From Cytophagales bacterium (lineage in GTDB: Bacteria > Bacteroidota > Bacteroidia > Cytophagales > UBA9547), in contig REAG01000117.1 in the NCBI GenBank assembly GCA_004294265.1, forward strand, positions 540-64,539: a DNA stretch of 64,000 nt, read 5' to 3'. Numbering within the stretch: the stretch's first letter is position 1; every line of letters begins with the position of its first letter. Below the pieces are notes generated by a model. It was not told where the DNA came from. It saw nothing but the letters and a program-made list of their open reading frames with translations, and searched no databases. This document shows positions 560 through 62,304 of the stretch, in pieces. The position numbers and the translations under genes are program-made.

Positions 560-3500
560 ATGACAACGCAACAATATATTGACAATATAAACAAACGCTA
601 CAAACTTGGAAATGCAACCGAGCATACTTTTCGTGGCGATTTGCAACAACTTTTAGAAAGTTTAGTGCCTGAAATAAGAGCGACCAACGAACCTAAAAGA
701 CAATCTTGCGGAGCTCCTGACTACATTCTGACCAAAAAAGAAATTCCAGTTGGTTTTATAGAAGCCAAAGACATTGGCGACAAAGACCTTGAAGGAGCTA
801 AGAAAACTGGAAATAAAGAACAGTTCGACCGCTACAAGGCTTCGCTAAACAACTTAATTTTTACCGATTATTTAGATTTCCATTTATATATTGATGGCGT
901 TTTTATTACAAAAATCGCTATTGCTGAAATTTCTCCCTCTCCTTTGGGGAGAGCTGGAGAGGGGGTTATCGTTCCCCTGCCCAACAACTTTGCAACTTTT
1001 ACAAATCTCATCAAAGATTTTTGTACACACGTTGGGCAGACCATAAAAAGTTCAAAAAAACTAGCAGAAATAATGGCAGGCAAAGCCAGATTACTTTCGG
1101 ATGTGATTGAAAAATCTTTAACCAGTGACGAGACCCACAACGAAGACAGTACCTTAAAAGATCAAATGATTGCTTTTAGGCAAATATTAATTCATGATAT
1201 TACCCCCAAAGGTTTTGCCGATGTGTATGCCCAAACCATCGCTTATGGTATGTTTGCAGCTCGTTTGCACGACCCAACTTTGGAGACTTTTAGCAGACAA
1301 GAAGCAGCAGAACTTATTCCAAAATCAAATCCGTTTTTACGCAAACTGTTTGGCTACATAGCTGGTCCTGACATTGACGACCGCATAAAATGGATTGTAG
1401 ATAGTTTGGTAGATATATTTTTGGCTTGCAATGTTGAAGAAATTTTAAAAAACTACGGAAAGCAATTCACCTCCTCCTCTGGGGGAGGACGGGAGGGGGC
1501 TGACCCCATCATCCATTTTTACGAAACATTTTTGAGTGAATACGACCCAGCACTAAGAAAAGCAAAAGGCGTTTGGTACACACCGCAACCCGTAGTAAAT
1601 TTTATTGTACGGGCTGTAGATGATATTTTAAAAACAGAATTTGATTTACCACAAGGGCTTGCTGACACCAGCAAAACAAAAATAAAGGTTGATATTCAAG
1701 GCAAAAAAACAGAACAGGAAGTTCATAAAGTGCAAATATTGGACCCTGCCACGGGTACAGGAACTTTTCTTGCCGAAGTAGTAAAACATATTCATAAAAA
1801 GTTTGAAGGACAAAAAGGGATTTGGAGCAATTATGTAGAAAACGATTTATTGCCACGAATTAATGGTTTTGAGCTACTTATGGCAAGTTACGCCATGGCA
1901 CATTTAAAATTAGATTTGCTTTTAAATGAAACAGGTTATTCTCCCTCCCCGATGGGGAGGGCTGGGGTGGGGTTTCAACGCCTTCGAGTTTATCTTACTA
2001 ATAGTTTAGAAGAAAGCCACCCAGATACAGGAACTTTATTTGCAAATTGGTTAAGCACAGAAGCCAATGAAGCCAATCATATCAAGAGAGAAACGCCCGT
2101 AATGTGTGTCATTGGCAATCCGCCTTATGCAGTAAGTTCTACAAACAAAGCAACATGGATAGAAAAACTTACAAAAGATTATAAAAAAGGGCTGAACGAA
2201 CGAAATATTCAACCGCTTTCGGATGATTATATTAAGTTTATTCGTTTTGGGCAGCATTTTGTAGAAAAAAACGGCAGTGGAATTTTGGCATACATTTCTA
2301 ATAATAGTTTTTTGGATGGTATTATTCACCGCCAAATGCGTAAGAATTTATTAGAATGTTTTGACACTATTTATATATTGGATTTACATGGGAATATTAA
2401 GAAAAAAGAAATTTGTACCGATGGAAGTCCAGATCAAAATGTTTTTGACATTATGCAAGGTGTTTCTATCAATATTTTTGTAAAAACAGGCAAGAAAAAG
2501 CAAGGCGAATTAGGCAAAGTTTTACATATTGATTTGCAAGGAAAACGACAATTCAAGTTTGATTTTTTGCTCAATAATTCATTAAAATCTGTTAGTTGGA
2601 ATAATTTACAAAACGACAATTTAAGTTATTTTTTTAGTAATAAACAATTTGATACAAGTGGCGTGTATGAAAATGGATTTAAGCTGAATGAATTGTTCGG
2701 TGAAAACAACGCAGGTTTAGTAACTTCGAGAGATAGTTTTATAATTCAAAACTCTGAAAATGAAGTAAAAAAAACGACACAAGATTTTGCTTACTTAGAC
2801 TCTGAAATTGCACGCAGAAAATACAATTTAGGAAAAGATAGCCGAGATTGGACAGTTAAAAACGCTCAAAAAGATTTAATTGCCCATAATCTTGATACTC
2901 AAAATATCAAACCCATTTTATACAGACCATTTGACATAAAATATTTGTATTATACTGCCAAATCCAAAGGATTTATTTCATACCCAAGAAACGAAATATT
3001 AAGGCATTTGAAAAATGATAATTTTGCTTTAATAACAACAAGACTTTTAAGTTCAACTTTATTCAGCCACTCTTTTATAAGTAATATTTTTGTAGATAAA
3101 TGTACGATTTCTAATCGAGGAAAAGAAACTAATTATGTATTCCCACTTTATCTTTATCCAAAACCAATAAATGAAATTCAAGAAGATGATTTTCAAAACA
3201 AATTGGCTCGATTGGAAGAATCTAAAGTGATTTATGAAAGTGCAAAAAAAGCGTTTATTCAAGTTCAAAAAATGTTTTCGGCAGTTTCAAATCCAGATAA
3301 AGAATTACTTACTTATTATAATCAACAGGTTAAAAACTTAAAGAAACTAGAACTTGAAGTAGAAAAATTTAAAATTCAGCTAGCAAATTCACAAGCAAAA
3401 CCATTATTTGAATCTGAAATTAAACGTAAACCCAACTTAAACCTAGCAATTATAAAACAAATAGCAGATGCGCTAGGCATACCCACCATGTTACCCAACG

Positions 3501-4021
3501 GAGAAGCCCCCTTCGGGGGTTTGGGGGCTCTTGATATTTTAGATTATATCTATGCCGTTTTACATTCGCCAACATACCGAGAAAAATACAAAGAATTTTT
3601 AAAAATAGATTTCCCTAAAATACCTTATCCAAAAACCTATAAGGTCTTCGAAGACCTTATAGGTTTGGGCAGCCAATTAAGACAAATCCATTTATTAGAA
3701 AGCCCAACAATTGAAAAATACATAACGCAATATCCCGAAGATGGAAACAATGTAATTACAAAACCACGTTTTTCTCCCTCTCCTTCGGGGAGGGCTGGGG
3801 TGGGGCTTGTTTATATAAACGAAACTCAATATTTCGATAATGTTCCACAAATAGCTTGGGATTTTTATATTGGCGGTTATCAACCCGCCCAAAAATGGCT
3901 CAAAGACCGCAAGGATAAAAAATTAGAATTTGATGATATTTTGCATTATCAAAAAATCATAGTTGCTTTGACAGAAACGGACAGATTGATGAAAGAAATT
4001 GATAATATTGAGATTGAATAA
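560..4021 (+). CDS. Type IIG single-polypeptide restriction-modification enzyme (N-terminal PD-ExK nuclease, gamma-class N6-adenine methyltransferase, C-terminal specificity domain)
   Basis: Nuclease-like motif GAPDYIL...GFIEAKD. AdoMet motif I ILDPATGTGTFL and catalytic motif IV VIGNPPYAVSS. C-terminal YIYAVLHSPTYREKYKEFLKIDFPKIPYP...IGGYQPAQKWLKDRKDKKLEFDDILHYQKIIVAL resembles the Type ISP/IIG specificity-domain tail. The 1153-codon ORF is intact. Confidence 0.85.
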   Translation: MTTQQYIDNINKRYKLGNATEHTFRGDLQQLLESLVPEIRATNEPKRQSCGAPDYILTKKEIPVGFIEAKDIGDKDLEGAKKTGNKEQFDRYKASLNNLIFTDYLDFHLYIDGVFITKIAIAEISPSPLGRAGEGVIVPLPNNFATFTNLIKDFCTHVGQTIKSSKKLAEIMAGKARLLSDVIEKSLTSDETHNEDSTLKDQMIAFRQILIHDITPKGFADVYAQTIAYGMFAARLHDPTLETFSRQEAAELIPKSNPFLRKLFGYIAGPDIDDRIKWIVDSLVDIFLACNVEEILKNYGKQFTSSSGGGREGADPIIHFYETFLSEYDPALRKAKGVWYTPQPVVNFIVRAVDDILKTEFDLPQGLADTSKTKIKVDIQGKKTEQEVHKVQILDPATGTGTFLAEVVKHIHKKFEGQKGIWSNYVENDLLPRINGFELLMASYAMAHLKLDLLLNETGYSPSPMGRAGVGFQRLRVYLTNSLEESHPDTGTLFANWLSTEANEANHIKRETPVMCVIGNPPYAVSSTNKATWIEKLTKDYKKGLNERNIQPLSDDYIKFIRFGQHFVEKNGSGILAYISNNSFLDGIIHRQMRKNLLECFDTIYILDLHGNIKKKEICTDGSPDQNVFDIMQGVSINIFVKTGKKKQGELGKVLHIDLQGKRQFKFDFLLNNSLKSVSWNNLQNDNLSYFFSNKQFDTSGVYENGFKLNELFGENNAGLVTSRDSFIIQNSENEVKKTTQDFAYLDSEIARRKYNLGKDSRDWTVKNAQKDLIAHNLDTQNIKPILYRPFDIKYLYYTAKSKGFISYPRNEILRHLKNDNFALITTRLLSSTLFSHSFISNIFVDKCTISNRGKETNYVFPLYLYPKPINEIQEDDFQNKLARLEESKVIYESAKKAFIQVQKMFSAVSNPDKELLTYYNQQVKNLKKLELEVEKFKIQLANSQAKPLFESEIKRKPNLNLAIIKQIADALGIPTMLPNGEAPFGGLGALDILDYIYAVLHSPTYREKYKEFLKIDFPKIPYPKTYKVFEDLIGLGSQLRQIHLLESPTIEKYITQYPEDGNNVITKPRFSPSPSGRAGVGLVYINETQYFDNVPQIAWDFYIGGYQPAQKWLKDRKDKKLEFDDILHYQKIIVALTETDRLMKEIDNIEIE
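932..967. repeat. in-frame GC-rich palindromic insert, copy 1 (encodes SPSPLGRAGEGV)
   Basis: tctccctctcctttggggagagctggagagggggtt. Exactly 12 codons (codons 125-136), GC-rich in an AT-rich gene, with a pyrimidine arm and purine arm that can pair. Confidence 0.8.
1469..1504. repeat. in-frame GC-rich insert, copy 2, diverged (encodes TSSSGGGREGAD)
   Basis: acctcctcctctgggggaggacgggagggggctgac. It has the same CT-run followed by G-run architecture as copies 1, 3 and 5, but is diverged and its boundaries are approximate. Confidence 0.55.
1940..1975. repeat. in-frame GC-rich palindromic insert, copy 3 (encodes SPSPMGRAGVGF)
   Basis: tctccctccccgatggggagggctggggtggggttt. Exactly 12 codons (461-472). 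CCCTCCCC and GGGGAGGG form an 8-bp stem around the 3-nt loop gat. It lies between methyltransferase motifs I and IV. Confidence 0.85.
3500..3529. repeat. in-frame GC-rich palindromic insert, copy 4, short variant (encodes GEAPFGGLGA)
   Basis: ggagaagcccccttcgggggtttgggggct. 10 codons. CCCCC-ttc-GGGGG forms a hairpin, with an alternative AGCCCCC/GGGGGCT pairing. It resembles the 3' half of copy 5. Confidence 0.55.
3773..3808. repeat. in-frame GC-rich palindromic insert, copy 5 (encodes SPSPSGRAGVGL)
   Basis: tctccctctccttcggggagggctggggtggggctt. Exactly 12 codons (1072-1083), in the same orientation and reading frame as copies 1 and 3. Confidence 0.85.
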
Positions 4022-4115: not shown

Positions 4116-4730
4116 ATGTCTTTAGAAGAAAATGAAAAAAAACGTTTTTTATTTCTGAAATATCTATACACTCAATCAAGTGGAGATGCTACCTATATTT
4201 TTATAATTAGTGAAGTTGGAAAAGAATTAGACTATGACGAAGTTAAACTTATAACTTCTTATCTTTTTGAAGAAAAATTAGTTAAATTCCCAGCTCTTGG
4301 TGGAGTTATTTCAATAACACACCAGGGAATAAAAGAAGTAGAAAATACAATTCGAAATCCAATAAAGAATACAGAACAAATTTTGCATTATAACACTATA
4401 AATATAGGGACAATGAATAATTCTTCATTGCAACAATCAACAACTAATTCAGGCATATCATTTGTGTATAACGAACAAAAATCTTTAGAATTAAATGATA
4501 TAATCAAATTACTAAAGGATATAAAGGATAGTTTTGAACTATCAAATGACTTACAAAATGAACTAATAACTGAACTTCAAACTATTGAATTACAATCTAA
4601 ATCAGTTAAACCTAAAAACATAATTATTTATGAATCTTTAAAAACCATTAGGACAATTCTGGAATCAGTTGCAAGTAACGCAATAGCTCCTTTAATTATT
4701 GACCGAATTACTGCACTTCTTTGTAGCTAA
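4116..4730 (+). CDS. hypothetical protein, 204 aa, function unknown
   Basis: Clean ORF 95 nt downstream of the RM gene on the same strand. The N-terminal ~75 aa look winged-helix-like (KKRFLFLKYLY...EVGKELDYDEVKLITSYLFEEKLVKF...ISITHQGIKEVE). The C-terminal half is helical and repeat-like. No family was recognised. Confidence 0.55.
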   Translation: MSLEENEKKRFLFLKYLYTQSSGDATYIFIISEVGKELDYDEVKLITSYLFEEKLVKFPALGGVISITHQGIKEVENTIRNPIKNTEQILHYNTINIGTMNNSSLQQSTTNSGISFVYNEQKSLELNDIIKLLKDIKDSFELSNDLQNELITELQTIELQSKSVKPKNIIIYESLKTIRTILESVASNAIAPLIIDRITALLCS

Positions 4731-4830
4731 TCATTAATATTTTTAAATGAAGAATTATAATTTTGTATACATGATATCAAATAACACTACCCGCCATGGC
4801 TCTAGGATGCACACTCTGTTGGGTTTTCGA

Positions 4831-5008
4831 TTTTAAAACCGTTTAAATTTGCATTTTTTGAAATATACCAAACCCCCTATCACAGTTTTTGAGCAAGTTA
4901 TCATTTTTTAAGTTCAATATTCCAAAAGCTTATTAAATTGCAAAATGAATATCAAGCTCAAACAAATCCCAAATCAGCAAAAAGCTGAAGAGTTATCAAA
5001 ACTGTTAA
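4831..5008 (+). repeat. direct repeat A: duplicated recJ upstream region plus first ~22 recJ codons
   Basis: Aligns by eye to 6231-6407 with about 10 differences over ~175 nt. The alignment includes the ATG (4945 vs 6344) and MNIKLK(Q/P)IPNQQKAEELSK. Confidence 0.85.
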
Positions 5009-5070
5009 AAGAAATAGAAAATAGTTTAAGAGAAAATTATAATCTAAAATATAATTGTTTAGTATCATAA
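4945..5070 (+). pseudogene. recJ 5' fragment (41-codon leader ORF made by the duplication)
   Basis: Translates as MNIKLKQIPNQQKAEELSKLLKEIENSLRENYNLKYNCLVS*. The first ~20 residues match RecJ at 6344, then the sequence diverges. The TAA at 5068-5070 is 1 nt before the ATG of the next gene (taacATG). Confidence 0.55.
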
Positions 5071-5071
5071 C

Positions 5072-6073
5072 ATGCAATACATACAAGAAATAAAACAAAT
5101 ATTAGCCAATGCAAGGCAAAAAGCCTACACCGCAATCAATGCTGCTATGACAGAAGCATATTGGAAGATAGGCGAAAAAATAGTGCTGGAAGAGCAAAAC
5201 GGAAAAAATCGTGCAGCGTATGGTGAAAGTATTTTAAAAGATTTGTCTATTGCATTAACACAAGAGTTTGGTAAAGGGTTTTCGTATGCTAACCTACGTA
5301 ATTTTAGACAATTTTATTTAACTTATCCCGACCCAGAGATTTGCTACGCAGTGCGTAGCAAATTGACATGGACGCATCATCGTTTGATAATGAGAGTAGA
5401 AAATACGGATGCTAGAAATTATTATCTAAATGAATGTGAAAATCAAAATTGGAGCTCTAGGGTGTTGGAACGAAATATTAATACTTTTTACTATCAAAGA
5501 ATTTTATCTACCAATGCACAATTTCCTGCAACACAGATAAGGGAAATTGAAACTCAAAATATTAAAGATTTCATTAAAGACCCTTACATATTTGAGTTTT
5601 TAAATATAGAACAACCCCATTATGCAAAAGAGCTAGAAATAGAAACCGCATTGATTGAAAATCTACAATCGTTTTTGTTAGAATTAGGCAAAGGTTTTTC
5701 GTTTGTCGCAAAGCAATTCAGAATAAGCACAGAAACAAGTCATTTTTATATAGACCTGGTTTTTTACAATTACATATTGAAATGTTTTGTAATCTTCGAC
5801 TTGAAAACCACCAAATTAACCCATCAAGACGTGGGACAGTTAGATATGTATGTGAGAATGTTTGACGACTTGAAAAAGCAAGACAACGACAACCCCAGTA
5901 TTGGCATCTTACTCTGTGCCGAAAAAGATGAAACCGTAGTGAAATATTCGGTATTGGCAGAAAATAAACAGCTTTTTGCCACCAAATATTTACCTTTCTT
6001 ACCTACCGAGCAAGAACTGATTGCCGAAATTGAAAGGGAAAAACTAAGCATCAAACAAAAACAAAATGAGTAG
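5072..6073 (+). CDS. YhcG-like PD-(D/E)XK nuclease family protein (DUF1016)
   Basis: N-terminal ARQKAYTAINAAMTEAYWKIGEKIV..EQNGKNRAAYGESILKDLS, central IKDPYIFEFL and the nuclease core ELGKGFSFVAKQFRI...YIDLVFYNYILKCFVIFDLKTTKLTHQDVGQLDMYV are characteristic of YhcG/DUF1016. Confidence 0.85.
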   Translation: MQYIQEIKQILANARQKAYTAINAAMTEAYWKIGEKIVLEEQNGKNRAAYGESILKDLSIALTQEFGKGFSYANLRNFRQFYLTYPDPEICYAVRSKLTWTHHRLIMRVENTDARNYYLNECENQNWSSRVLERNINTFYYQRILSTNAQFPATQIREIETQNIKDFIKDPYIFEFLNIEQPHYAKELEIETALIENLQSFLLELGKGFSFVAKQFRISTETSHFYIDLVFYNYILKCFVIFDLKTTKLTHQDVGQLDMYVRMFDDLKKQDNDNPSIGILLCAEKDETVVKYSVLAENKQLFATKYLPFLPTEQELIAEIEREKLSIKQKQNE

Positions 6074-6230: not shown

Positions 6231-6407
6231 TTTTAAAGCCGTTTAAACTTGCATTTTTTGAATATACCAAACCCGCTATCACAGTTTTTGAGCGAATTAT
6301 CATTTTTTAGGTTCAATATGCCAAAAGCTTATTAAATTGCAAAATGAATATCAAGCTCAAACCAATCCCAAATCAGCAAAAAGCTGAAGAATTATCAAAG
6401 TTATTAA
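6231..6407 (+). repeat. direct repeat B: native recJ upstream region and 5' coding end
   Basis: Partner of 4831-5008. It continues into the full-length recJ ORF. Confidence 0.85.
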
Positions 6408-8041
6408 ATATCAATATTTTACTTTCAAACTTATTAATACAAAGAGAAATAGATAATTTTGAAAATGCAAAATCATTTTTCAGACCAAATCTAAATGAAA
6501 TTCACAATCCATTTTTGATGAAAAATATGGATAAAGCTGTGGAAAAAATAATAAAAGCCATCGAAAATAAAGAAAAAATATTAATTTATGGCGATTATGA
6601 CGTGGATGGAACTACTGCGGTTGCGTTAGTTTTTGATTTTCTAGGCAAATATCATACCCATATTGACTATTATGTTCCTGATAGATATACAGAAGGTTAC
6701 GGAATTTCAACTTTAAGTATAGATTTTGCAAAAGAAAATAATTTTTCGCTTGTAATAGCCCTAGATTGTGGCATTAAATCAAATGAAAAAATAAATTATG
6801 CTAACACTTTAGGAATTGATTTTATCATTTGCGATCATCACGAGCCAGGTGAAGAAATTCCAAAAGCGCTTGCCGTTCTTGATGCCAAGCAAAACGATTG
6901 TAACTATCCATACAAAGAACTTTCGGGTTGTGGCGTTGGGTTTAAATTAATGCAAGCATATTGTATTAAAAAAAACATTGAATTAGATAAATTATTTCCG
7001 TATTTAGATTTGCTTTGTGTAAGTATTGGAGCAGACATAGTGCCAATAGACGGAGAAAACCGTATTTTTTGCTATCATGGATTAAAAATAATCAATGAAA
7101 ACCCACGTTTTGGAATTAAATCTTTAATAGGAATATCAGGATTTAAAAAGCAATTTAAAATTTCAGACGTTGTTTTTAAACTCGCTCCTAGAATAAATGC
7201 CGCAGGAAGAATTCATCATGCGAAAGCTGCCATAAACTTACTCATTTCAAATACAGAAGAAGAAGCAGAAAAATGGGCTACAAAACTTAATGATAGTAAT
7301 ATTTACAGAAAAGAATTAGATAAAATAATCACAGAAGAAGCCATAGAAATGATAGAAAATCAAGTTGATTTTCTATCATTAAAATCAACAGTTTTATTTA
7401 AAAATGATTGGAACAAAGGCGTAATCGGAATTGTGGCTTCTCGTTGCATAGAAAAATATTATAAGCCAACCATTATTTTAACAGAATCTAACGGAATTGC
7501 AGCAGGATCGGCTCGTTCAGTTCATGGATTTGATTTATACAATGCCATTTCAAATTGCTCAGACTATTTAGCACAATTTGGAGGACACACCCATGCGGCA
7601 GGCATGACTTTAAAAATTGAAAATATTGAAAACTTTAGAAAAGCATTTGAAAAACAAGTTTCAAAAACAATAAAAGAAGACTCATTAACGCCACAAATGC
7701 TTGTCGATATGGAAGTTCCACTTTCATTTGTTAGTTTAAAAACAGAAAAAATAATTTCACAAATGCAACCTTTCGGACCAAAAAATATGACTCCCGTTTT
7801 TATTACTAAAGGATTAATTGACGGAGGAAACAGTCGAGTTGTAGGTGAAATTCATCTAAAATTAGATTTACATTGCCCCACTTCAAATATAAAAATTGCA
7901 GGTATTGCATTCCAAAAAGGAAATTTAATCAATCAAATTCAACAAAAACACCCATTTACAATCTGTTACACTTTAGAAGAAAATATATTTAACAATATTA
8001 AAACCGTCCAAGCTCAAGTCAAAGAAATCATATTTGAATAA
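6344..8041 (+). CDS. recJ: single-stranded-DNA-specific exonuclease RecJ
   Basis: DHH-family motifs GDYDVDGTTA, LDCG and ICDHHEP, plus the DHHA1 motif FGGHTHAAG. 565 aa. Confidence 0.95.
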   Translation: MNIKLKPIPNQQKAEELSKLLNINILLSNLLIQREIDNFENAKSFFRPNLNEIHNPFLMKNMDKAVEKIIKAIENKEKILIYGDYDVDGTTAVALVFDFLGKYHTHIDYYVPDRYTEGYGISTLSIDFAKENNFSLVIALDCGIKSNEKINYANTLGIDFIICDHHEPGEEIPKALAVLDAKQNDCNYPYKELSGCGVGFKLMQAYCIKKNIELDKLFPYLDLLCVSIGADIVPIDGENRIFCYHGLKIINENPRFGIKSLIGISGFKKQFKISDVVFKLAPRINAAGRIHHAKAAINLLISNTEEEAEKWATKLNDSNIYRKELDKIITEEAIEMIENQVDFLSLKSTVLFKNDWNKGVIGIVASRCIEKYYKPTIILTESNGIAAGSARSVHGFDLYNAISNCSDYLAQFGGHTHAAGMTLKIENIENFRKAFEKQVSKTIKEDSLTPQMLVDMEVPLSFVSLKTEKIISQMQPFGPKNMTPVFITKGLIDGGNSRVVGEIHLKLDLHCPTSNIKIAGIAFQKGNLINQIQQKHPFTICYTLEENIFNNIKTVQAQVKEIIFE

Positions 8042-8042
8042 A

Positions 8043-8271
8043 GGGAACCTCTAAAAACCCCAATATTATTTTTAAAAACCCCACCCAAACCCTCCCCAAG
8101 TGAGAGCAATGTCGTTAAGTTAAGATGCTCGAAAGTCCCTCCCCCTTTTTGGATTCTGCGTCTTCGTAGCAGAACTTGGATTTAGGGAGGGGTTTAATGA
8201 AAGTAATTTCTTTAACTTAACGACATTGCAAGTGAGAGAGCTTCATCGGAATTGAATTTTTAGGAGTTCAC
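8043..8271 (+). repeat. MITE-like GC-box element, composite/nested long copy (229 bp)
   Basis: Its ends match the 119-bp family (gggaacctctaaaaacc...tttttaggagttcac). The interior is a 122-bp unit bounded by an 18-bp perfect inverted repeat (8106-8123 / 8212-8229) and a 10-bp direct repeat caagtgagag (8097-8106 / 8229-8238). That unit carries an inverted second copy of the family core hairpin. Confidence 0.75.
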
Positions 8272-8281
8272 TAAATACAAA

Positions 8282-9187
8282 TTAAACTATAATATTACTT
8301 TTCTTATGAACGTGTTCGGGTAACTGACCGCCTCTTAAAATTGTGTTATTATTAAATTTTAAACCTAAATCAGTAGTTTCATTTAAAGTCCAATCCTCTT
8401 GTTTCATCATTCCAGTTTGTCCAAAAGCCAAAAGAGCATTTTCATAACATACTTTATTTATTGAATCAGCATCAAAACCACGTTCATTCATTAAACTAGC
8501 AGTTTTAGGAACTGCCAAAGGATCACTCACACCCCAATCGGCAGCACTATTGATGATAATTCTTTCAGTTCCATATTGCTTTACAATTTCTACCATACGT
8601 TCATTGCCCATTTTTGAATAAGGATAAATTGTAAATGCTGCCCAAAAACCTCTATCTAAAACCTCTTTTACAGTTTCTTCATTATTATGGTCAATTATTA
8701 CTTTACTAGGTAGTAAACCATGTTCTAAAGCTACATTCATGCTTTTAGTTGTGCCATTCTTTTTATCCCTATGAGGTGTATGAACTTGCACTAGAGTGTC
8801 CGTTTGTTTCGCTAACTCGAGCTGCAATCTATAAAATTTATCTTCTAAAGGCGTTTGTTCATCATAACCAATTTCTCCAATACCTACAACATGTTCTTTA
8901 CCTATAAAAAGAGGTAAAATGTCCATAACTTGTTCTGCTAATGCCTCATTGTTTGCTTCTCTAGAATTTAAACCCATTGTGCAATAATGTTGAATACCGA
9001 ACTGAGAAGCCCTAAATCTCTCCCAACCAATCAGACTTGAAAAATAATCTTTAAAAGTACCAACTGAAGTACGAGGTTGACCAAGCCAAAAAGAAGGTTC
9101 AATAACAGCAACTATTCCAGCTTTCGACATAGCTTCGTAATCATCTGTCGTTCGACTAACCATGTGAATGTGAGGATCAATAAACAT
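8282..9187 (-). CDS. TatD-family / amidohydrolase-fold metal-dependent hydrolase
   Basis: MFIDPHIHM has an HxH metal-binding start, with later VQVHTPH and IIDHNNE. The ORF track extends to 9259, but the ATG at 9187 (MFIDPHIH) matches the usual family N-terminus. Confidence 0.65.
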   Translation of the reverse strand: MFIDPHIHMVSRTTDDYEAMSKAGIVAVIEPSFWLGQPRTSVGTFKDYFSSLIGWERFRASQFGIQHYCTMGLNSREANNEALAEQVMDILPLFIGKEHVVGIGEIGYDEQTPLEDKFYRLQLELAKQTDTLVQVHTPHRDKKNGTTKSMNVALEHGLLPSKVIIDHNNEETVKEVLDRGFWAAFTIYPYSKMGNERMVEIVKQYGTERIIINSAADWGVSDPLAVPKTASLMNERGFDADSINKVCYENALLAFGQTGMMKQEDWTLNETTDLGLKFNNNTILRGGQLPEHVHKKSNIIV

Positions 9188-9320
9188 ATATAAATTAGAA
9201 TAAGAACAAAAGTAAAGGGCTTGAAACGAAACCATGGTTTCTCTCAAGCCCTCTAACATATATTTAAGTATTTACGTTATTAATTAGAATACAAATAACA
9301 TGCCAAACTACTTATAAGTA

Positions 9321-34090: not shown

Positions 34091-34209
34091 AGGAACCCCT
34101 AAAAACCTCCATTCCGTTAAAGCCCTCCCACTTGGATTCTGCGGTTTCGTAGCAGAAATTGGTTTGGGTGTGGTTTTTAAAAATAATATTGGGGTTTTTA
34201 GAGGCTCCC
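34091..34209 (-). repeat. MITE-like GC-box element, 119-bp copy (reverse orientation)
   Basis: aggaacccctaaaaacc...ggtttttagaggctccc. It aligns over its full length (about 85% by eye) to the reverse complement of 62186-62304, including the core hairpin ggattctgcggtttcgtagcagaa. Confidence 0.85.
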
Positions 34210-34223
34210 AAATTTCATTTAAA

Positions 34224-37148: not shown

Positions 37149-37182
37149 AAACCTATAAGGTTTGAAAAAAACTTATAGGTTT
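37149..37182 (+). terminator. hairpin after TA pair 1
   Basis: 11-bp stem aaacctataag / cttataggttt with a 12-nt loop, 11 nt after the stop codon. The T-tract is weak. Confidence 0.4.
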
Positions 37183-55644: not shown

Positions 55645-56604
55645 ATGTTTACTATCAAAACAATTCCGTTTGGAAAAACGACCGAAATAAAGTTAATAAA
55701 CATTCATACAGGCGAATATGTTGCAATTTTGCCAGATTTTGGTTGTGCAATTAATAGTTTGATATTAAAAAAAGGTGATAAGCTATTTGATTTAATTGAG
55801 GGTTCAGAAAGTTATGATCATTTATTGTTAAATGGCTTAAGTGAATATAAGGGTTCATTTTTATTTCCATTTCCAAACCGATTAAAAGGTGGAAAATATA
55901 GTTTTGATGGAAAAAATTATGAATTTGAAAACAATGATTCAGATGGAAAGCCAAATGCCTTACACGGTATATTAAATGATTGTAAATTTAATATGGTAAG
56001 ATTTGAAGATTTTTATACTAAAGCTGAAATCGACTTTAGCTATACTTCAAGCGGAATTGATTCTCAGTATCCATTTTTATATCAAGTAATAATTAGATAT
56101 ACTTTAGATGTTAATAATGGTTTGAGTATTCAAACTTTTGTTACTAACAAAGGTAATGTTTCTATGCCAGTTGGTTTAGGATGGCATCCCTATTTCAAAA
56201 CTTCGGGAAAGATTGATGAAATGATGATTCACTTCCCTAATTCTGAACATATAGAACTTGATAATTTTGGAATTCCGACCATGAAAATTACACCCTCAAA
56301 ATTATTTAAACTTACAGACAGTGTAAATGACACATTATTAGATGATTCTTTTAGAGTTGTTGAAAATATTCCTATTTCAGAAATATTTCTTTTCGATTCC
56401 GATAACAACGTGAAAGTAAGTATTTGGCAAGAAAATGGCAAAAATAAGTTCAATTTTTTTCAAACTTATATTCCTCCACACCGCAAAACAATCGCCATTG
56501 AACCCATGACTTGTGCACCTGATAGTTTTAACAATGGTTTAGGATTAATAAAATTATCTGCTAACGAAAAATTTGATTGTTCTTGGGGAATTAAATTAAT
56601 TTAA
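55645..56604 (+). CDS. aldose 1-epimerase family protein
   Basis: FPFPNRLKGG, ALHGIL, GLGWHPYF and IAIEPMT are typical of galactose-mutarotase-like proteins. Confidence 0.75.
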   Translation: MFTIKTIPFGKTTEIKLINIHTGEYVAILPDFGCAINSLILKKGDKLFDLIEGSESYDHLLLNGLSEYKGSFLFPFPNRLKGGKYSFDGKNYEFENNDSDGKPNALHGILNDCKFNMVRFEDFYTKAEIDFSYTSSGIDSQYPFLYQVIIRYTLDVNNGLSIQTFVTNKGNVSMPVGLGWHPYFKTSGKIDEMMIHFPNSEHIELDNFGIPTMKITPSKLFKLTDSVNDTLLDDSFRVVENIPISEIFLFDSDNNVKVSIWQENGKNKFNFFQTYIPPHRKTIAIEPMTCAPDSFNNGLGLIKLSANEKFDCSWGIKLI

Positions 56605-62049: not shown

Positions 62050-62185
62050 TTTATTGAAACTATTTTTTATAGAAAAGAAATTTATTTGTATTTTTACAAT
62101 AAATAGTAAAAGAATGTAAGCCATACACATAAAAGTATTTATAGCCATTCGTTGTGGGTATTCGTTCATAAAATTTGCCACTTTA

Positions 62186-62304
62186 GGGAACTTCTAAAAA
62201 CTCTAATATTGTTTTCAAAAACCCCACCCAAACCAATTTCTGCTACTAAACCGCAGAATCCAAGTAGGAGGGATTTATCGGAATTGAGGTTTTTACGAGT
62301 TCCC
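62186..62304 (+). repeat. MITE-like GC-box element, 119-bp reference copy
   Basis: 16-bp imperfect terminal inverted repeats, gggaacttctaaaaac and (reverse complement) gggaactcgtaaaaac. Internal GC boxes ccccaccc and ggaggg flank the hairpin ttctgc-tactaaacc-gcagaa. Confidence 0.85.

Follow-up and report, generated by a model that had tools for sequence, protein, structure and literature searches.

Short repeats that carry the same core are easily taken for members of one family, and the question at this locus is whether a palindromic unit that sits inside a resident repeat belongs to the family of its host or came from elsewhere. The unit lies in the 240-bp spacer (8042-8281) that separates the stop codons of two convergent genes, recJ (protein TAG57672.1) and a tatD-like gene (protein TAG57719.1), in a 64-kb stretch of a Cytophagales MAG, hereafter the window. 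A resident repeat begins after a gap of 1 nt from the recJ stop codon, and the 122-bp unit splits it in two. We conclude that 8107-8228 is very probably an IS4-subgroup MITE with a chimeric body, which jumped into the resident repeat and left a 10-bp duplication. The basis for this conclusion is the geometry of the unit, the family to which its ends belong, the variable duplications around its relatives elsewhere, the existence of transposase-encoding relatives, and the absence of the composite in sister lineages. The features of the locus, with the other resident-family copies used for comparison, are interpreted as follows.

6344..8041, plus strand: recJ, single-stranded-DNA exonuclease (ORF list; TIGR00644, 519.5 bits against a cut-off of 396.9).
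8043..8096, plus strand: left portion of the resident repeat, in which the family's 25-nt hairpin is missing; aligns to the copies at 62184, 56603, and 34093 (reverse complement) up to CCCACCCAAACC.
8097..8106, no strand: first copy of the target-site duplication, CAAGTGAGAG; the 10-bp sequence differs in other family members.
8107..8123, plus strand: left terminal inverted repeat, CAATGTCGTTAAGTTAA, of IS4-subgroup type; fits -AATR--------WTW (Table 1, PMC2266710).
8124..8211, minus strand: MITE interior (local and multiple alignments, DNA fold, and ORF check).
8212..8228, minus strand: right terminal inverted repeat, TTAACTTAACGACATTG; Logan contigs L001, L002, L129, and L130 contain this junction as well.
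8229..8238, no strand: second copy of the target-site duplication, CAAGTGAGAG; corresponds in the alignment to CAAGTGGGAG of the canonical resident copy.
8239..8271, plus strand: right part of the resident repeat, AGCTTCATCGGAATTGAATTTTTAGGAGTTCAC (alignment).
8282..9259, minus strand: TatD-family hydrolase gene, convergent with recJ (PF01026 and source names; weak TIGR00010 match).
34093..34212, minus strand: resident-family copy in reverse orientation (alignment).
56603..~56700, plus strand: variant resident-family copy, with a right half (CAAAAAGCAGGGGGACGTTC) that matches the MITE interior best.
62184..62304, plus strand: canonical resident-family copy, for comparison (alignment).

A repeat finder returned a perfect inverted repeat of 18 nt (8106-8123 and 8212-8229; 100% complementary, with 88 nt between the arms), and the 10-bp direct repeat CAAGTGAGAG flanks the unit without a mismatch at 8097-8106 and 8229-8238, as an earlier note on this DNA had described. 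Neither is likely to be a chance occurrence: the arm was found at just two places in the window even when three mismatches were allowed (0.12 expected), and CAAGTGAGAG occurs just twice in the 64 kb, where 0.04 occurrences are expected by chance. When the arm was compared with 123 ends among the matches listed from other genomes, the base outside CAATG was not conserved (A in 8, C in 36, G in 28, and T in 51), and conservation of the arm ended after position 18, which is G in 85% of them. Because the base beyond CAATG is free to vary, the 18th arm pair, G8106 and C8229, belongs to the duplication, and the element itself is 8107-8228, which leaves perfect terminal inverted repeats of 17 nt, CAATGTCGTTAAGTTAA. 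These are the element limits and the 10-bp duplication that had been proposed, with the outermost arm pair now assigned to the duplication. No ORF of 20 aa or more was present inside the unit. As single-stranded DNA, it is predicted to fold with −28.6 kcal/mol (z = −6.4), and this strong fold is attributable to the arms and the inner palindrome. Its length of 122 bp, its non-coding content, its terminal inverted repeats, and the target duplication are those of a MITE.

To place the termini, the 17-mer CAATGTCGTTAAGTTAA was scanned against one genome per GTDB species. At least 119 stretches matched, and in these the 17-mer ends elements in Bacteroidota, Chloroflexota, Bacillota, Pseudomonadota, Verrucomicrobiota, Planctomycetota, and other phyla, often with several elements per genome. 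Many of the matches lie k−1 nt from contig ends (for example, at 110-126 where k is 127 and at 124-140 where k is 141), as is expected of the terminus of a multi-copy repeat. Among the matches listed, 74 pairs of arms could be formed within loci, mostly 60-280 bp in size. About 24 of these 74 pairs were flanked by decamers identical at 10 of 10 positions, and all of these decamers differed from one another (for example, CCCGATTTAT, ATAATTCAGG, GGCTCAAGTT, and GGAGGGGGCA); a few elements among the matches listed had 9-bp duplications. Since the flanking decamer changes with each copy, CAAGTGAGAG is a target-site duplication and not a part of the element. The earlier note had proposed a search for other copies, each with a flank of its own, and had named a constant flank or the lack of any further copy as the observations that would speak against transposition; neither was the outcome, as elements with exactly these termini occur in many genomes with differing flanks, of 9 bp in place of 10 bp in some cases. 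Within single genomes, lineage-specific variants that are 92-96% identical to each other occupy different sites and have different duplications. In a clostridial locus (L014), two 189-bp MITE copies (3461-3649 and 4577-4765) are 96% identical, lie ~0.9 kb apart, and have their own perfect duplications, CAGGCTGAAC and GTTCAGCATT; the two targets are partly reverse complements of each other. The exact 17-nt end was present in at least six phyla, and the MITE interiors were unrelated between genomes (loci L003-L121). A scan of viral contigs for the arm gave two matches and no sign of phage carriage, and a full-text literature search for the arm sequence gave no match.

Several of the elements in other genomes have 9-bp duplications and lie at CCC-N3-4-GGG mini-hairpin sites (L010 609-782, L017 6133-6317, L087 1423-1597, and L011 134-246). 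Since insertions into CCC-N3-4-GGG hairpins recur in several genomes, landing in resident repeats seems to be usual for this group. The sites suggest that MITEs with these ends prefer insertion into resident palindromic repeats.

The family of origin of these ends could be assigned through full-length relatives in other genomes. Elements with the same arms and a length of 1391-1442 bp were found at five loci (L039, L042, L043, L100, and L096) and encode a protein of ~445 aa; perfect duplications enclose them, for example in L039 (5255-6645; GGAGGGGGCA), L043 (GGTGCGAGCT), and L100 (GTATTAATGG). The ~445-aa protein matched PF01609 (DDE_Tnp_1) at 2e-18 and the NCBIfam model NF033592, "IS4 family transposase," with 170.5 bits (cut-off, 115), and it contains the motif Y-2-R-3-E-6-K as YNMRWGVEESYKLFK. 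The full-length copies in L039, L042, and L100 encode a single-ORF DDE transposase with this motif, which is the signature of the IS4 family (PMC2266710). For the IS4 subgroup of that family, De Palmenaer, Siguier and Mahillon 2008 give ends of the form -AATR--------WTW, a length of 1400-1650 bp, and direct repeats of 10-13 bp (Table 1, PMC2266710), and the ends, size, and duplication length all fit this row of the table. In the window arm CAATGTCGTTAAGTTAA, positions 2-5 read AATG and positions 14-16 read TTA. The transposases of L096 and L100 were 29-31% identical to that of L039, and the elements have an identical or near-identical 17-mer in common. No transposase homologue was detected in the 64-kb window by tblastn. 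A homologue search at E <= 1e-40 returned 1068 related proteins, of which most of those listed lie on ~1.4-kb contigs, and none could be tied to this MAG. The combination of IS4-type ends, a 10-bp duplication, and transposase-encoding relatives identifies the nested unit as an IS4-subgroup MITE. The proposal that the inverted and direct repeats are the footprint of a transposition is thereby supported by the same termini at other sites, their different duplications, and the IS4 transposase of the relatives.

We then compared the body of the unit with the resident family. This family is an intergenic repeat of ~123 bp with the termini GGGAACCTCTAAAAACC... and ...GGTTTTTAGRGGTTCC and a central hairpin, TTCTGC-N9-GCAGAA; the window contains three other copies, and 8043-8271 is the fourth, split by the 122-bp unit. 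The core of the unit, GGATTCTGCGTCTTCGTAGCAGAA (8151-8174), is the resident hairpin in reverse orientation, with TTCTGC-N9-GCAGAA itself at 8154-8174, and it is bracketed by CCCTCCCCC (8137-8145) and GGGAGGGG (8185-8192). Comparison with the hairpins of the other copies (34134, 56657, and 62238) confirmed both the inverted core and the C-rich and G-rich brackets, and the second direct repeat aligned to CAAGT(A/G)GGAGGG of the canonical resident element; in these points, the earlier description of the unit was accurate. The similarity extends beyond the core, as the interior at 8131-8207, when reversed, showed 79-81% identity across 76-77 nt to resident-family positions ~24-95. The local alignments of the interior to the resident family scored 64-69, against 15 ± 2.3 (maximum, 25) for shuffled sequence, and the best match was the variant at 56603, with which the interior has the right half in common. 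The unit has neither of the resident termini GGGAACCTCTAAAAACC and GGTTTTTAGRGGTTCC and aligns to family positions ~24-95 alone. The host copy has CTCC in place of its 25-nt hairpin, while the insert holds one. IS4-type termini and the lack of resident termini together mark the unit as a chimera and not as a resident-family copy; judged by these alignments, its body is a diverged, arm-less copy of the resident family, so that IS4 ends enclose a local repeat body.

Other short repeats were also noted in the window. At this locus, TAAA both precedes and follows the resident repeat (8039-8042 and 8272-8275), for which the other three copies have no clear counterpart; the TAAA flanks may be a short target duplication of the resident repeat's own. 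A second short repeat family, at 921-967, 1929-1975, and 3762-3808, consists of a hairpin CTCCCTCCCC-N3-GGGGAGGG followed by GGGGTGGGG, and its C-rich and G-rich blocks are those that also bracket the cores in the resident repeat and in the MITE body. A 34-nt palindrome, AAACCTATAAGG...CCTTATAGGTTT, is present in two copies (3633-3666 and 37149-37182) that are 82% identical to each other.

The relation between host and insert admits other histories. The host has CTCC at the position of the 25-nt hairpin, and the hairpin of the insert lies 10 nt away in the opposite orientation, a complementary pattern that would be expected if the body had been taken from the host copy in situ, for example by aberrant transposase action or by repair after excision. 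We consider such a rearrangement improbable, because the insert overlaps the arms that the host has retained (family positions ~24-50 and ~77-95) at ~75-80% identity only. Moreover, the right half of the insert is closer to the 56603 variant than to the host, and ordinary insertion of a pre-formed unit leaves just such a perfect 10-bp duplication. Inversion or in-situ capture as the source of the inverted core had been tried as an explanation and was rejected on the finding that the interior is ~80% like the overlapping host arms.

A somewhat less probable history, and the one that the earlier note had favored, is the transposition of a resident copy of the GGGAAC... type into a sibling, with the 17-nt arms (CAATGTCG...) as the termini of a subfamily. 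The family core hairpin and the C-rich and G-rich brackets in the interior would be explained in this way. The insert, however, lacks the terminal ~22-28 nt of the family on both sides, its termini are of IS4 type and occur in many phyla that do not have the resident family, and the three other resident copies in the window have no such arms. With IS4-type termini and a relationship to the family that is confined to the interior, at ~80%, the idea of a resident copy inside its sibling was not borne out, and we regard it as very unlikely.

Least credible of all is a reading of the unit as something other than mobile DNA (a structured RNA, a terminator, or a switch that inverts between its inverted repeats): the strong single-strand fold, the site between convergent genes, where a terminator would be useful, and the inversion of the interior relative to the resident family would agree with this, but IS4 termini form the arms, the target duplications differ from copy to copy, no terminator-like site was predicted inside the unit, a spacer between two 3' ends offers no promoter for a switch to flip, and Rfam gave no meaningful family for the region at the gathering threshold or at E <= 1 (a chance match to SNORA79 had E = 0.79 and 19 bits against a gathering threshold of 55).

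As an inserted IS4-subgroup MITE, the unit would have arrived in the following way. An IS4-type DDE transposase would recognize the two 17-nt terminal inverted repeats; this enzyme would be supplied in trans by a full-length relative, and the unit would be excised by cut-and-paste, in keeping with established knowledge of the family. The transposase would then join the unit to a target cut with a 10-bp stagger in the right-central part of the resident GGGAACCTCTAAAAACC... repeat, and repair of the stagger would produce the CAAGTGAGAG duplication. The body may have been acquired through a composite of two short elements around a repeat, followed by a deletion, or through filler synthesis during repair. 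Mobilization in trans, the cut-and-paste chemistry, and the route of body acquisition are thus inferred.

The history of the locus could be followed in related strains. Identity to the window was 100% for Logan contigs from SRR7244339 and SRR7244350 and 99.2% for those from SRR12360572 and SRR12360546. The 99.2% contigs had the same right junction, TTAACTTAACGACATTG|CAAGTGAGAG; the left arm of the resident repeat adjoins recJ in this strain, as it does in the window. More distant lineages were represented by SRR12360573 and SRR12360575, with identities to the window of 97.0% and 95.8%, respectively, on the tatD side and of 93.1% and 91.0% in recJ. In these lineages, window positions 8042-8272 are replaced by 10 nt, GCCCAAAATG. 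The recJ and tatD stop codons are only 19 nt apart in L128 and L131 (96-97% identical), where the 231-bp composite is absent. In the still more distant L122 and L124 (TatD, 81-83% identical), recJ is not beside tatD, and for this reason they are uninformative on an empty site.

The absence of the composite from the 96-97% lineages indicates that it is a lineage-specific gain, and the shared junction in the strain with 0.8% divergence indicates that the MITE insertion predates that split. The earlier note had suggested a comparison with sister strains for an empty site: the site without the composite was found, but an allele of the resident repeat without the MITE was present in none of the sister strains examined. 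In consequence, the insertion step is inferred from the duplication, and the MITE step is not separately datable. At 0.8% divergence, the arms and duplications, 54 nt in all, should have gathered ~0.4 substitutions, so that their perfection alone is no proof of recent activity, and the fresh insertion and continued activity that the earlier note had suggested could not be shown.

Further copies of the element were also sought. The window contains no second copy of the 122-bp variant, as the arms occur at one site. When the interior and the resident family were compared by BLAST with more than 120 loci, same-strain contigs alone matched, and JGI metagenomes gave no match to the right-end 26-mer or to the degenerate core hairpin TTCTGCTACKAARMCGCAGAATC. 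Four tatD-side Logan contigs (k = 31) all end at window position 8200, and the recJ-side contig ends at 8066. The breaks at 8200 hint at extra MITE ends, as they fit a repeated 30-mer at 8200-8229, or at strain polymorphism. They were downgraded as proof of extra copies, since the recJ-side break at 8066 is not predicted by a simple repeat boundary.

The neighborhood of recJ varies in other ways as well. A 178-nt direct repeat (87% identical; 4832-5009 and 6231-6408) flanks a gene for a DUF1016/YhcG-like nuclease (5072-6073), and its second copy (6231-6408) overlaps the start of recJ. In the L128 and L131 lineages, a different gene, of 186 aa, adjoins recJ in place of the nuclease gene, and in the 99.2% strain (L132) the nuclease gene is broken into two ORFs (165 and 140 aa). 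This region looks like a strain-specific gene insertion with duplication of the recJ 5' region. No exact-protein match for RecJ or for the 317-aa TatD was on record.

The IS4 assignment invites comparison with named elements. The ends of Escherichia coli IS4 (TAATGCCAGTCAGTTAAG and TAATGCCGATCAGTTAAG; MG1655) are identical to CAATGTCGTTAAGTTAAG here at 13-14 of 18 positions, and the target duplication is about one helical turn in both (12 bp for E. coli IS4 in K-12 MG1655 and 10 bp for the window MITE). E. coli IS4 and the full-length relatives (1.39-1.44 kb) are alike in having a single-ORF DDE transposase with YREK, and InsG, the E. coli IS4 transposase, was 20.8% identical to the L039 protein. 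Unlike IS4, the window element has 122 bp, no transposase, and a body that is not derived from an insertion sequence. The closest named insertion sequence among annotated plasmids was ISPa1635, an IS4-family element of Pseudomonas plasmids. Its ends, CAATGTCATCAACTTTGG and CAATGTCATCAACCTAAG (CAATGTCATCAAC...), have CAATGTC and the overall pattern in common with the window MITE, but it differs in its length of 1637 bp, its proteobacterial host, 5 of 18 end positions, and a transposase with 31% identity to that of the L039 element.

Nonautonomous elements offer a closer analogy. The MIC231 cassettes of Bacillus cereus reportedly consist of IS231 ends around unrelated passenger DNA (Chen et al. 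1999 and De Palmenaer et al. 2004, cited in PMC2266710). They belong to the IS231 subgroup, are kilobase-sized, carry a gene, and depend on a transposase in trans. MIC231 and the window MITE are alike in having IS4-family termini around DNA that is not from an insertion sequence, with the transposase presumed to act in trans for the latter; the passenger of MIC231 is a gene in a kilobase-sized cassette, whereas the window MITE carries 88 nt from a local non-coding repeat. Classical bacterial MITEs, such as Correia/NEMIS, RUP, ERIC, and the MITEs of P. gingivalis, are small and non-coding, with inverted repeats and a target duplication; they are intergenic, fold into a long hairpin, and are often nested in other repeats. 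The window MITE shares with them the size class, the lack of coding capacity, the intergenic site, the hairpin fold, and the nesting, but it comes from another insertion-sequence family, and its duplication is 10 bp, compared with TA for Correia. Exact 17-nt ends that are common across phyla and enclose lineage-specific bodies are a property of the window MITE type, unlike the classical MITEs.

The unit is therefore an ordinary type of mobile-DNA footprint, of a known kind, of which the chimeric body and the cross-phylum 17-nt end are the mildly unusual parts. The 122-bp insert disrupts no gene, and it is probably neutral for the organism because its neighbors on either side are the 3' ends of two convergent genes, recJ and the tatD-like gene.

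Whether its chimeric body reflects a wider process is a more speculative matter. A tentative proposal, which we think somewhat doubtful at present, is that IS4-subgroup ends repeatedly join resident palindromic (REP-like) repeats and so produce lineage-specific chimeric MITEs. As the transposase needs ~18 bp per end, two such ends would be enough to mobilize whatever short local repeat lay between them. Hints of such end capture are that nothing past position 18 is conserved in the 123 ends among the matches listed and that many insertions lie in CCC-N3-4-GGG hairpins. In a Methylococcaceae MAG, a palindrome that lacks arms and lies 3.4 kb from a MITE is similar to the body of that MITE, and in a Kapaibacterium MAG, the module of a MITE body, CCCTCA.CC...GGGTGAGGG, recurs with different termini, TTTGTGTAAAC and GTTTACACAAA. 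A MITE body and its arm-less or other-armed homologue lie on the same contig in L062 (131-221 and 3649-3771) and L011 (3736-3805 and 134-246); a palindrome motif in one such homologue, GCTGAGCGGAGTCGAAGC, also resembles MITE bodies of Aquimarina. If the proposal is true, it would describe a general way in which MITE families arise and REP-like modules spread, and the window unit would be such a hybrid, found within a copy of the family from which its body derives.

The locus provides a clean, datable case of one mobile element inside another. The identical 17-nt IS4-type end across phyla, with transposases that are ~30% identical and MITE bodies that are unrelated and locally derived, could be useful for the question of how MITEs originate. 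For the annotation of repeats, it matters that elements with different mobilization machinery can go unnoticed when a "family" is defined by the core that its repeats have in common.
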